Positions 8,549-27,619 of a stretch of 64,000 nucleotides of DNA are shown piece by piece. Both the position numbers and the translations under genes were made by a program. The DNA is taken from the NCBI GenBank assembly GCA_964016885.1, contig OZ024742.1, positions 199,206,001-199,270,000 of the forward strand. The letters run 5' to 3'. Position 1 is the first letter of the stretch, and each line of letters opens with the position of its first letter. A model generated the notes under the pieces. The model had not been told where the DNA came from. It worked only from the letters and a program-made list of their open reading frames with translations, and did not search any database. Source of the stretch: Eledone cirrhosa (taxonomy: Eukaryota).

Positions 8549-8778
8549 ATATCATGCATATATATATGTATATATATATATATATATATATATATATCAT
8601 GCATATATATATGTATATATATATCATGCATATATATATATATGTATATGGAAAGTTATATTTAAATTGTTGGGTTACAACTAGTAAATATTTATAACTG
8701 ATATAGAAGCACTCGACAAGTATTTGGAGTATATTTACAATATTAAATAAATGGAAACTATATTTATAAAACCATATT

Positions 8779-8844
8779 TATTTCATTATATATATTTCAG
8801 GGATATCATATTAACAATATGCTATGCCTTCCTCAGACAAAATA
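8779..8844 (-). ncRNA. Type I minimal hammerhead ribozyme (inverted copy, PLE-1)
   Basis: Reverse complement of the motif at 11004-11069. Confidence 0.8.
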
Positions 8845-9003
8845 CAATATAAACAGTTTTATAGATAAATAGATTCGACATACCGTAACAACATCGACTT
8901 GTATTTGAAAAGGTTGATTTGGCAGTGAAAAAATTGTACACAGAGAGAAAGAAAGAGAGAAAAAAAGGAAAGAAAGACAGAAAACGAAGAAAAAGAAGAA
9001 ATA

Positions 9004-9551
9004 GACATACAATAAAATTAACCTACTCATCCACCAAAAATTTAGCACAAAATATTAATAGAATAAATAATAGGAACTTAAAACCTAGTGATAATAGCAT
9101 AAATAATATACAAGTTAACAAATGTAACTGTAGAGATAGATCTAAATGTCCGTTAAATAACAACTGCTTAGTTAAAAATATAGTATACAATTGTAATGTT
9201 AATACTGACTCTAATTCTTTTAACTACGTCGGTTGCACATCGACGGAATTTAAACTTCGCTATAATAACCACAAGAATTCTTTCACAGACCCAAGCAAAA
9301 AATCTTCAACGGCACTATCAGGCGTACTCTGGCAACTTAAGCTAGATAACGTTAGATATTCGACGGCTTGGAATATAGTCTCAAGAGGGATTCCTTTTAA
9401 TTCATCCTCTGAGACATGTGACCTCTGCGCAGAGGAGATATTCTTTATACTAAAATCTAAAAATTCCCTTAATCTATGGACAAATTTATTCAGTTGCTGC
9501 AAACATAGATTAAACTCAACGTTTAAATATAAATTTAAATTTAAAATGTAG
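9004..9551 (+). CDS. PLE GIY-YIG endonuclease, C-terminal part of a truncated ORF
   Basis: KLTYSS..N..CNCR....CPL...CL...IVYNC...YVGCT..FK.RY.NH..SF...STALS...W...CDLC..E...LN...CKH. No RT portion is retained. Confidence 0.88.
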
Positions 9552-22702: not shown

Positions 22703-25313
22703 TATATTGAACTCCTTTAACCATCTTTTGATCTTATATTATATATATATATATATATATATATATATATCATGCATATATATATATATATATATATATA
22801 TATCATGCATATATATATATATATATATATATATATATCATGCATATATATATATATATATATATATATATATCATGCATATATATATATATATATATAT
22901 ATATATATATATATATATATATCATGCATATATATATATATATATATATATATATATCATGCATATATATATATATATATATATATATATATCATGCATA
23001 TATATATATATATATATATCATGCATATATATATATATATATATATATATATATATCATGCATATATATATATATATATATATATATATCATGCATATAT
23101 ATATATATATATATATATATATATCATGCATATATATATATATATATCATGCATATATATATATATATATATATATATATATATATCATGCATATATATA
23201 TATATATATATATATATATATATATATATATATATATATATATATATCATGCATATATATATATATATATATATATATCATGCATATATATATATATATA
23301 TATATATATATATATATATCATGCATATATATATATATATATATATATATATATATATATATATATCATGCATATATATATATATATATATATATATATA
23401 TATATATCATGCATATATATATATATATATATATATATATATATATATCATGCATATATATATATATATATATATATATATATATATATATATATCATGC
23501 ATATATATATATATATATATCATGCATATATATATATATATATATCATGCATATATATATATATATATATATATATATATATATATCATGCATATATATA
23601 TATATATATATCATGCATATATATATATATATATATCATGCATATATATATATATATATATATATATATCATGCATATATATATATATATATATATCATG
23701 CATATATATATATATATATATATGCATATATATATATATATATATATCATGCATATATATATATATATATATATATATATATATATATATATATATATAT
23801 ATATATATATATCATGCATATATATATATATATATATATATATCATGCATATATATATATATATATATATATCATGCATATATATATATATATATATATA
23901 TATCATGCATATATATATATATATATATATATATATATCATGCATATATATATATATATATATATATCATGCATATATATATATATATATATATATATAT
24001 ATCATGCATATATATATATATATATATATATATATATATCATGCATATATATATATATATATATATATATATATATATATCATGCATATATATATATATA
24101 TATATATATATATATATATATCATGCATATATATATATATATATATATATATATATATATATATCATGCATATATATATATATATATATATATATATATA
24201 TCATGCATATATATATATATATATATATATATATATATCATGCATATATATATATATATATATATATATATATATATATCATGCATATATATATATATAT
24301 ATATATATCATGCATATATATATATATATATATATATATATATATCATGCATATATATATATATATCATGCATATATATATATATATATATATATATATA
24401 TATCATGCATATATATATATATATATATATATATATATATATATCATGCATATATATATATATATATATATATCATGCATATATATATATATATATATAT
24501 ATATATATATATCATGCATATATATATATATATATATATATATATATATATATCATGCATATATATATATATATATATATATATATATATCATATATATA
24601 TATATATATATATATATATATATCATGCATATATATATATATATATATATATATATATATCATGCATATATATATATATATATATATATATATATATCAT
24701 GCATATATATATATATATATATATATATATATATATCATGCATATATATATATATATATATATATATATATATATATCATGCATATATATATATATATAT
24801 ATATATATATATATATATCATATATATATATATATATATATATATATATCATGCATATATATATATATATATATATATATATATATATATATCATGTATA
24901 TATATATATATATATATATATATATATATATATATATATCATGCATATATATATATATATATATATATCATGCATATATATATATATATATATATATATA
25001 TATATATATATCATGCATATATATATATATATATATATATCATGCATATATATATATATATATATATATATATATATATATATCATGCATATATATATAT
25101 ATATATATATATCATGCATATATATATATATGCATATATATATATATATATATATATCATGCATATATATATATATATATATATATATATATATATATAT
25201 ATCATGCATATATATATATATATATATATATCATGCATATATATATATATATATATATATATATATATATATATCATGCATATATATATATATATATATA
25301 TATATATATATAT

Positions 25314-25651
25314 GGAGGCACATGGCTTAGTGGTTAGAGCATTGGGCTTGCAATCAAAAGGTTGTGAGTTCAATTCTCAGACCGGGTGATGTGTTGTTTC
25401 CTTGAGCAAGACACTTTGTTTCACATTGCTCCAGTTTACTGAGCTGTAGAAATGAGATAAGGACTGGGGTCCCTATCATTCCACTGCAAAGTGGTCGTGG
25501 CGGTGCCACGGCAAAAAAGCACCCAGCACTCACTGTAAATGTGGTTGGTGTTAGGAAGGGCATCCAGCTGTAGAAATCAAGCCAGAATCGGTTCCCGTCC
25601 CACCCTTGCAAGCAGGGAAAAGCGGACGTAAAATGAAATGATGATGATGAT
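25314..25651 (+). mobile_element. SINE S1
   Basis: Full-length match to 3057-3409. Confidence 0.92.
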
Positions 25652-25684
25652 ATCATGCATATATATATCATGCATATATATATA

Positions 25685-27619
25685 TACGATATTAATAAAT
25701 GGAAACTATATTTATAAAACCATATTTATTTCATTATACATATTTCAGGGATACCACATAAAATTATGGTATGCCTTCATCAGACAAAATACAATCTATA
25801 ACAGTTTTACAAATAGGTTTGACGTACCCTTTAAAATACAACCATTACTTTTGGAGGCTGTCTGGATAGTGATTTGTTTATATAATAAGTCATAGTGTTA
25901 AGCACAATTAGAAAAAGACGGCGAGAAAGAAAGAACAAAGAGAGAGAAAGAAAAGAGAAAGAAAACCTGGAGAAATATCGGCGAGAGAGAGAAATGTATG
26001 GAGAAAAGAAAGAGATAGATAAAGATAGGAGGAAATAAAAAAGAAAGAAAAGGAAGGAATAAGAAAAACAAAGGAAAGCAACAGAGATATCAAGTCATCA
26101 TACAGAAAGAGAAACTCAAGAGAGAGAAATACTATATAGAGAGAGGGGGACAGTGACAACTTTACGTCATGTCATTAAGTTGAGTTAACAATTTATATGA
26201 AATGAATAATAAAAATATAAATATAAGTATCAATATTCATGAATGGGACATAGATATATAATATGAGAAATTAAACATTGTTCAATAATGACCATATGTT
26301 TAGTTTAGAAACTTGAGATCAATATACCAAAATCTGAGTTCAAAATGTACCCTTGCTATAGAGATTAGTATTTTATGCAAAGACATACAAATATATATGT
26401 ATATATACATACATATAGATACATACGCACGTCCTGAAAATAGAAATTATGTTTACTTAAGCCAACAATATAGCCATACAAAACGTAAATGATTTCTCTT
26501 AATCATTGCTATACACTCATTGTGTTATAAAAATTTCACAGTATATATATACAAATATATACGATTAATAATCATGTCCTCATATATACGATTACCATTC
26601 ATGTGTTTAATATTATGCACATCTGTAACACCTCACAACCACATAGATATATACACACACATATATACACATACATATGTATAATAAATATCTGCGTGCG
26701 TCCTCATGCATCACTCATGTATATATACAGACACATATACAAACACAAAAAATCTATAACACTTTCTATGCATGTTAATACACACATATGCATTTGTATA
26801 GAGATAATCCAATATCAATAAATTACCAAAGGATTATAATTTGTAAATATAACCATAACAATACAAATTTAAAATACCAAAGGAATATATTTTGGAAATG
26901 CAATTATATAGTCAAATGAAATCTAGAAATATCAAAGCATTAAATATCATTAAAACACTGTAGAGTATCTTAAGTTAAAATAATATGTTTTATATATTTA
27001 GTATAGAAAGTTATCCTACGTATATCTCAATCAAGATATTGAGAGGGTAGACTTGTGAAAGTTATGAGAAGCTATCATAATCAAAACAAATAAAAATAAT
27101 TTAAAAGATTTAAAAAAATTTAAAAAACCCAATAATCTACAGATAACCTTATATTTAATATAGAAATTTACCTTACGTATATTTTATTTAATACATTGGA
27201 AGTATAGACATTTTAGAGTAGTTTATTATATCCATGTTTATATTTAGGAAGAAAGTTTAAAAAGAAAAAGGTGAAGGAATCTAATGGATTATCGACAGGT
27301 TCTATATATTAACTACAATTACTTAATTAATTATACTACATTTTAAATTTATATTTATATTTAAACGTTGAGTTCAATCTATGTCTGCAGCAACTGAATA
27401 AATTGTTCCTCAGATTAAGGGAATTTTTGGACTTTAATATAAAGAATATTTCTTCAATACAATGAAATTTCTTCAGTATAATGAAATAAATATGGTTTTA
27501 TAAATATAGTTTCCATTTATTAATATCGTATATCTGCTCCAAAAATTTGTCGAGTGCTTTATATCAGTTATAAAAATATTTACTTGTTGTATCCCAACAA
27601 CTTTAAATAGAACTTTTGC
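25685..27619 (-). mobile_element. PLE-1b: Penelope-like 3' fragment related to PLE-1, with short inverted arm
   Basis: 27346-27461 (minus) encodes CIEEIFFILKSKNSLNLRNNLFSCCRHRLNSTFKYKYKFKM*, close to the end of the PLE-1 ORF. Inverted repeat 25682-25739 / 27476-27533. Confidence 0.88.
25727..25791 (-). ncRNA. Type I minimal hammerhead ribozyme (PLE-1b)
   Basis: TATTTTGT-CTGATGA-AGGCATACCATAATTTTATGTGGTATCCCT-GAA-ATATGTAT-A^ATGAAATA. Confidence 0.83.

Follow-up and report, generated by a model that had tools for sequence, protein, structure and literature searches.

How do retroelement insertions acquire two different ends? The question is raised by four insertions of Penelope-like elements (PLEs) in the window studied here, a 64-kb stretch of Eledone cirrhosa DNA (contig OZ024742.1, positions 199,206,001 to 199,270,000). 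Each of them consists of two arms placed head to head, one closing with a "short" end and the other with a "long" end that includes an additional tail. The insertions are PLE-1 (family A), PLE-1b (a subfamily related to A), PLE-2 (family B) and a palindromic member of family C. The mechanism that we favor, with a probability of roughly 70%, is that two reverse transcriptases (RTs), predicted to form a dimer, dock on one uncleaved RNA at two matching hairpins, and that each of them starts synthesis from one of the 3' overhangs left by a single staggered cut.

Short and long ends and their pairing

The ends were compared in 188 genomic regions (60 of family A, 63 of B and 65 of C) obtained from pattern searches, with the first 100 matches listed per pattern, all on one contig (C1). 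The family A regions include all but two singleton matches among the 100 listed, and those of family C (8 search loci and 57 regions) include all 100. Family B is represented by 57 clusters in list order and by six later clusters chosen for two nearby matches, which bias the ratio of pairs to singles, not the end class. In the window, the short ends are found at +46 to +53 from the predicted hammerhead cut, in agreement with the ~45-53 nt of a previous reading made from the sequence alone (hereafter, the sequence-only reading), and the long ends at +136 to +153. A tail of 86-100 nt is present on one end only. The sequence-only reading predicted that genomic copies would end in two sharp peaks, and this is what the sample displays: 327 of the 334 called ends belong to the short or the long class, sharp to the base, and the termini are not broadly spread. 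In a BLAST-ranked sample of family B from nine contigs, 35 of 36 rows belong to the two classes (some rows being the same arm twice). Exact family A junctions amount to 3744 short and 2750 long genome-wide.

The same reading predicted one short and one long end per insertion. The 136 raw head-to-head pairs comprise 124 short+long pairs, 7 same-type pairs and 5 with an unclassifiable end, so that mixed pairs are 124 of the 131 classifiable ones (45 in A, 30 in B and 49 in C). Inspection of the seven same-type pairs revealed one cut by the region edge, two made up of unrelated neighbours, one with an interrupted arm, one short/short insertion (L247) and two long/long pairs. The host flanks of L247 are also inverted copies, and this locus is either a secondary inverted duplication or an assembly artefact. 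The binomial probability of the mixed pairing is 9e-30 when counted as 124/130 and 4e-33 as 124/127. A junction-anchored check of family A, using the first 100 short and the first 100 long exact junctions and partly overlapping the main sample, recovered among the junctions listed 42 mixed pairs of 43 in the shared range, the other being short/short and none long/long, plus one long/long pair beyond that range. The pairing of short with long ends is near-obligate, not merely frequent.

The arms differ in how far they extend in the 5' direction: the short arm is longer in 53 of the 124 mixed pairs, the long arm in 32, and both are equal in 39. The arms overlap in 111 of these pairs. Their junctions show microhomology in 54 cases, are blunt in 9 and hold an insert in the remainder, of 1-15 nt in 36 and of greater length in 25, a class that takes in alignment gaps. 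Cleavage by the hammerhead was considered as the origin of the arm ends and rejected, since only 2 of the 248 paired arms start within 10 nt of the cut site and 228 extend more than 10 nt through it. As far as the ends are concerned, the hammerhead is only a landmark.

Twin hairpins beside the two ends

According to the sequence-only reading, the three families do not align with one another. This does not hold at the protein level, where families B and C are 41-53% identical to A, and the families also have in common a hairpin motif beside both ends. In read-through copies, the motif RCTC-Y...R-(UY)-GAGY is found twice per element, ~4-9 nt after the position of each end, the hairpins starting at +57 and +148 in family A, +60 and +161 in B, and +53 and +143 in C. 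The window contains four matches to the motif, one per tail, and the two-hairpin pattern has 625 matches versus 2 for its control. The inner closing pair, which the pattern leaves unconstrained, is formed in 34 of 35 distinct hairpins (29 C-G, 3 U-A and 2 U-G), and the outer pair is G-C in 18 and A-U in 17. In an alignment of 18 motif-selected rows, all 90 of 90 cells are paired, with G-C/A-U and C-G/U-A changes indicative of covariation. Hairpin 2 lies outside the tail, in the 5' untranslated region (UTR), ~30-50 nt before the family A start codon. The spacing between both hairpins (90-101 nt) tracks the length of the tail.

The motif alone also retrieved further Hydra-like subfamilies, whose proteins are 55-86% identical to that of A and whose ends precede the hairpins by 0-16 nt, in most cases by 4-9 nt. 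In the Hydra consensuses compared (File S7 of Craig 2021, PMC8557442), the hairpin was recognized by eye and is clear in four of six, from coral, sea cucumber and copepod; the spacings read there are ~61 and 75 nt. In Hydra-1_Ajap, two hairpins lie 61 nt from each other, and the first follows the 3' end of the consensus by 2 nt; Hydra-2_Ajap and Hydra-2_Amil have one each, at the start of the tail; and Hydra-1_Crog has two variant hairpins, the second one 6 nt after the consensus 3' end. Hydra-1_Obim bears one degenerate copy and the Hydra-1_Amil consensus stops before the hairpin region.

The same hairpin is present in a hammerhead-less family (L364, L368, L372, L374 and L381-L410; ~1020 exact motif matches), a non-coding, (TA)n-inserting and sometimes tandem unit of ~380-620 nt. 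It ends ~105 nt after the hairpin, just before a second hairpin-like stretch; 29 of 30 loci end in (TA)n 83-123 nt past the hairpin, and head-to-head arms are nearly absent. Locus L366 links the end of this family to an RT fragment with YVDD, and the family is probably a non-autonomous PLE of another clade.

A probable single cut and single template, and possible integration routes

An interruption of the (TA)n target is duplicated on both sides of the insertion in 15 of 101 parsed pairs, where 1.3 would be expected from mismatched flanks. Fourteen of these duplications measure 12-15 nt, terminal microhomology included, and PLE-1 itself has one. They imply that both target 3' ends join 3' ends of the element across one staggered break. 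In addition, only 5 of the 53 pairs with a longer short arm hold a tandem unit able to supply the tail; the remaining 48 cannot arise by fold-back of one cDNA. Both lines of evidence support the proposal of the sequence-only reading that the two broken target ends prime cDNA synthesis on RNA.

The two arms of an insertion also carry the same variants. Partner arms are discordant at 10 of 1020 shared polymorphic cells, versus 431 expected for random arms, and in a longer and noisier alignment window at 84 of 1742 cells versus 858 expected. Clean pairwise alignments of 32 pairs give 0.77% substitutions within the pseudo-long-terminal repeat (pLTR) and 0.67% upstream. No haplotype switch occurs upstream of the start site and shared variants lie almost solely at microsatellite edges. 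This unchanged haplotype led us to reject strand transfer from one RNA to another at the start site; transfer within one RNA may be an alternative. The 5' extents beyond the pLTR are equal in 6 of 39 pairs versus 1.9 by permutation (p = 0.005), and arms pile up at -139 in family A (13/90) and at -123 in family C (32/98). At the family C start-site junctions, G replaces the genomic C in 13 of 36 cases, on both arms in L138 and L225. The extra G would fit copying of a cap, and -139 and -123 are probably the capped 5' end of the RNA, that is, a putative start site.

The mechanism that we favor would proceed from these nucleotide-sharp ends, paired short with long and each ~4-9 nt 5' of an RCTC-[stem]-2-nt-bulge-GAGY hairpin. 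The GIY-YIG endonuclease would cut both (TA)n strands ~11-15 nt apart, a stagger that is visible in the sequence and conjectural as chemistry; the insertions do show the target copy duplicated and both target 3' ends joined to element 3' ends with 1-3 nt of T/A microhomology. The same sense RNA, with its hammerhead uncut, would template both cDNAs. PLE RTs are not known to have RNase H, and the trailing enzyme, at the long site, would therefore have to displace the leading cDNA. Synthesis might end at random, at a shared break or at the probable capped 5' end (position -139 for family A and -123 for family C). The cDNA 3' ends would then join by microhomology or short filler, and each cDNA would prime the second strand of the other, which would yield the head-to-head unit. 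The tail would correspond to the stretch between the two start sites. The motif associated with the long end is located past that end, and for this reason neither end of the insertion is likely to be an RNA end.

Several observations weigh against this mechanism. Two long/long pairs (L239 and L248) stand after inspection, one or two same-type candidates remain among the junctions listed in the junction-anchored check, and 62 ends were called single (short and long in similar numbers in families A and B, 10 versus 3 in family C). The rows of the hairpin alignment were picked by motif, which makes their pairing score lean towards the motif; in none of the 35 hairpins does the inner stem exceed its shuffles in stability, and the z-scores of single sequences reach modest values (-0.7 to -2.1). 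All 30 loci examined in the hammerhead-less family run through the hairpin without a short end, as seen with a search pattern blind to ends lying farther than ~8 nt upstream of it, and this means that the hairpin alone is not sufficient. Docking and dimerization are predictions for these proteins. Moreover, long-site priming with the upstream body needs an RNA in which hairpin 2 lies downstream of the 3' repeat, such as a tandem read-through or a circle. Finally, the in vitro study of PAc, a Poseidon element from Anolis, observed that the strands did not differ in start site, and it did not address pairing (Frangieh 2024, PMC11167929).

Among the alternatives, the one that survives best, although unlikely, is that priming is double and the hairpins serve another purpose, such as a promoter, translational control of the nearby start codon or endonuclease binding at the DNA level, the starts being set by local T/A microhomology and RNA shape. 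It is congruent with the presence of hairpin 1 without an adjacent end in the hammerhead-less family, the weakness of the inner stems and the location of hairpin 2 in the 5' UTR, ~30-50 nt before the family A start codon. The Penelope tail region has also been discussed as a basal promoter (PMC2377424), and, in the summary given by Frangieh 2024 (PMC11167929), as a requirement for endonuclease recognition. Nevertheless, the offset of the hairpins from both ends is near-constant in three families otherwise little alike at the DNA level, their spacing follows the tail length, and T/A-rich sites are everywhere in these RNAs, only two of which are used.

We consider it improbable that two RNAs from the same source locus meet in an asymmetric complex and are primed at one site each. 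Such a complex would explain the overlap of the arms in 111 of the 124 pairs without strand displacement, and RNAs from the same locus would have a common haplotype. Yet each RNA carries both sites, so that strict short+long pairing would require an extra rule, and two observations rather fit a collision on one RNA: the shared 5' extents away from the start site (6/39 versus 1.9) and the excess of very short long-site arms (17 versus 6, p = 0.035).

A somewhat poorer candidate is a single priming event followed by fold-back (self-priming) and endonuclease resolution, from which both the tail and the inverted arm would originate (Arkhipova 2013; Craig 2021). Fold-back also predicts that both arms share their haplotype, and the equal arms of 39 of the 124 pairs, including the family C palindrome of the window, as well as the junction microhomology in 54, agree with it. 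However, in the 48 pairs where the short arm reaches further 5' without a tandem unit, a folded short-arm cDNA cannot contain the tail and a folded long cDNA cannot reach that far; besides, most equal arms end at the putative start site, sometimes with the extra G on both. Fold-back is thus contradicted as a general route, and it may explain some cases with a longer long arm or a palindrome. Lastly, inherited pairing, by whole copying of ready-made inverted units or by later gene conversion between arms, can practically be dismissed, because, despite a few recurrent identical junctions (L144/L148, L254/L256 and four CATATG junctions) and the secondary inverted duplication that L247 exemplifies, almost all insertions have arm lengths and junctions of their own, the asymmetry of short and long ends would be lost through conversion, and arm divergence is even (0.7%) along the overlap.

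The proposal of two RTs docked on twin hairpins can be extended to a more general claim, which we hold to be evenly balanced between right and wrong: that the two hairpins of Hydra-clade PLE RNAs, bulged, homologous to each other and conserved from coral to echinoderm, arthropod and this genome, seat the two protomers of a telomerase-related RT dimer, that each protomer primes one overhang of an 11-15 nt staggered cut on the same RNA, that insertions are obligately made of one short and one long end, and that the cDNAs prime each other's second strand.

The window insertions and their relatives

The units were delimited by self-BLAST and a motif scan; a repeat search of the window was dominated by (TA)n. 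All four head-to-head units lie within (TA)n arrays, at the positions that the sequence-only reading had given. Their features are the following (hammerhead pairing was read from the sequence, and each core extends to the predicted cut where so stated).

8650..11112, unstranded: PLE-1, insertion of family A; the long arm is on the left, the 5'-truncated body with the short end on the right
8635..8649, + strand: PLE-1 15-nt target duplication, left copy, terminal microhomology included
8650..9005, - strand: family A inverted long arm, ~-216 to +140 from the hammerhead cut
8650-8737, - strand: 88-nt tail of the PLE-1 long arm
8709..8730, - strand: hairpin 1 (RCTC-stem-UY-GAGY) inside the PLE-1 tail, 5-7 nt beyond the short-end position
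8787..8836, - strand: minimal hammerhead core to predicted cut, PLE-1 long arm
9000..9551, + strand: C-terminal linker (CxCx5C) and GIY-YIG endonuclease coding part of the family A open reading frame (ORF)
11012..11061, + strand: minimal hammerhead core to predicted cut, PLE-1 short arm
11110-11112: PLE-1 short end
11111..11125, + strand: PLE-1 15-nt target duplication, right copy
15015..16302, unstranded: PLE-2, family B insertion, 1-nt junction microhomology
15015-16177, - strand: PLE-2 long arm with body
15085..15108, - strand: family B hairpin 1, 6 nt past the short-end position
15168..15199, - strand: minimal hammerhead, PLE-2 long arm
16178-16302, + strand: PLE-2 short arm
16218..16249, + strand: minimal hammerhead, PLE-2 short arm
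19305..22742, unstranded: family C insertion, near-perfect palindrome with axis 21070/21071, long end left, short end right
19360..19386, - strand: family C hairpin 1
19437..19491, - strand: minimal hammerhead, family C long arm
21070..21438, + strand: family C GIY-YIG endonuclease C-terminal coding part, mirrored on the other arm
22642..22696, + strand: minimal hammerhead, family C short arm
25685..27619, unstranded: PLE-1b, insertion of an A-related subfamily
25685 to ~27455, - strand: PLE-1b short arm with body
25734..25783, - strand: minimal hammerhead, PLE-1b short arm
27476-27619, + strand: PLE-1b long arm, starting 3-5 nt before the cut site
27536..27557, + strand: hairpin 1, PLE-1b tail

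As first described, the body is joined to the short end in PLE-1 and PLE-1b and to the long end in PLE-2; the arms of the family C unit are equal. The claim that all units are arranged around a hammerhead is right for seven of the eight arms, which carry a minimal core with stems I and II, and fails for the PLE-1b long arm, which begins 3-5 nt before the cut and has no core. Likewise, the TA-like microhomology noted at the short ends exists, and it is not specific to them, since the long ends also have 1-3 nt in common with the (TA)n target. In three insertions (window position 21070, L244 and L219), family C arms end at ~-1690 to -1705, at a TCATAA motif like that of the -123 start; a possible internal start there would explain the perfect palindrome of the window.

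The landing pads of all these elements are long (TA)n arrays with CATG every 20-35 nt (22743-25312 and 18140-19304). The same kind of array holds copies of a long interspersed element (LINE) with endonuclease, RT and a (GAT)n tail (11442-14647, 7737-8545, 16365-17044, 28555-29554 and 38241-40406). Two inverted copies of a 343-nt short interspersed element (SINE; 25314-25651 and 27683-28024), with a tRNA-like head recognized by eye and a LINE-like 3' end, flank PLE-1b and create a larger apparent inverted repeat; further copies are located at 3056-3398 and 47959-48300. An extra hammerhead-like core (17551-17589, - strand) lies within a unit whose borders are direct repeats of 175 nt (17262-17436 and 17945-18120) and may be another PLE end. 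Finally, an intact-looking two-ORF non-LTR element (594 and 1153 amino acids, with endonuclease and RT) occupies 32046-37292 on the - strand.

On the basis of their motifs, the four insertions are assigned to Hydra-type PLEs. Locus L145 encodes an intact single ORF of 737 amino acids with YRDD and a C-terminal endonuclease, as read from motifs. DKG is replaced by DKT (SDKT in A and C, ADKT in B), the N-terminal RWK site reads RWR in A and B and RWI in C at the matching place, the CxCx5C linker reads CNCRDRSKC, CNCRVSANC and CNCPIKNKC in the three families, and the endonuclease E and N are surrounded by CxxC (CDLC/CNLC) and CxH (CKH/CPH/CLH); CCHH was not seen in the proteins when judged by eye. 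Tandem periods are 3.8-4.0 kb in A, 4.6-4.8 kb in B and 3.3-3.9 kb in C. The pLTRs hold the hammerhead, the insertions sit in (TA)n, and the 5' UTR side of the tandem junction forms the tail. Exact hammerhead motifs number 3147 (A), 2295 (B) and 11980 (C) genome-wide versus 0 for the reversed controls, so the units are not due to chance. Neither Pfam nor a PDB sequence search returned a significant match for the proteins, an Rfam scan of the window gave no hammerhead among the 150 of 579 rows listed, just repeat-driven microRNA matches, and no relative was confirmed in a metagenome scan. The hammerheads of the window arms fold weakly in a folding test, as expected of minimal motifs (Cervera 2014).

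These traits fit the Hydra clade as described in section 11 of Craig 2021 (DKT, RW motif, CxCx5C linker, CxxC/CxH, hammerhead and (TA)n insertion), with some differences: that clade tends to be shorter than 3 kb, whereas the periods here reach 3.3-4.8 kb with long 3' UTRs; RWK is replaced by RWR/RWI; and the hammerhead motifs number in the thousands, unlike in that description. The partial tandem pLTR and the adjacent inverted 5'-truncated copy are those of the canonical unit of endonuclease-containing (EN+) PLEs, for which inverted ends with a one-sided tail of 30-40 bp have already been published (Arkhipova 2013, PMC3846280; Craig 2021, PMC8557442). In these accounts, the first proposes self-priming and the second reports the tail often at one end only, which it ascribes to endonuclease resolution. 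The tail is 86-100 nt long here and its one-sidedness near-obligate (124/131). No tail-border hairpin appears in the parts of these two accounts available to us.

The idea of double priming is supported by our results but is less new than the sequence-only reading implied, as two internal RT starts, coinciding with the tail borders, were already shown for PAc in vitro (Frangieh 2024, PMC11167929). In that system, both strands of an AT-rich target are cut and extended, the enzyme is a predicted dimer, the template is uncleaved RNA and hammerhead cleavage is dispensable. PAc belongs to a different clade, and its study did not address one-site-per-strand pairing, a single-template origin or target duplication. 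It reports no homology at the start and one AC-rich stem-loop, versus the 1-3 nt of T/A microhomology and two matching hairpins found here, and its printed template, inspected by eye, lacks the RCTC/GAGY motif. Judging from the sequences, the genomic footprint described here matches internal double initiation of the PAc type.

LINE-1 twin priming also involves priming by both target ends on one RNA, the inverted 5' segment being joined by microhomology; there, the poly(A) end is primed first, the second site is internal and variable, and the arms do not overlap. In contrast, the elements studied here lack poly(A), each of their two sites is internal and fixed, and 111 of 124 pairs have overlapping arms. 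A literature search, with older subscription papers outside its reach, found no pairing count, single-template test or twin hairpins for PLEs. The architecture is hence known and double initiation half-known; the strict pairing, the single template, the target stagger and the twin hairpin are additions.

The integration route of PLEs and the origin of their inverted ends with a one-sided tail are called open in the accounts of Craig 2021 and Frangieh 2024. With the genomic record, what was a qualitative description can be restated as rules: an end of each type, a single template and a single staggered cut. Double priming also represents a different answer to the problem of second-strand synthesis. 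The hairpin is a concrete cis element whose mutation, swapping and relocation are testable in the existing assay, and its motif finds Hydra families missed by Pfam. Telomerase has the PLE RTs as its sister group, so a hairpin in the RNA that fixes where synthesis begins bears on template definition in that lineage. If the more general claim of hairpins that seat an RT dimer is true, the PLE tail would serve to space two docking sites, and relocating the hairpins could reprogram where synthesis starts.

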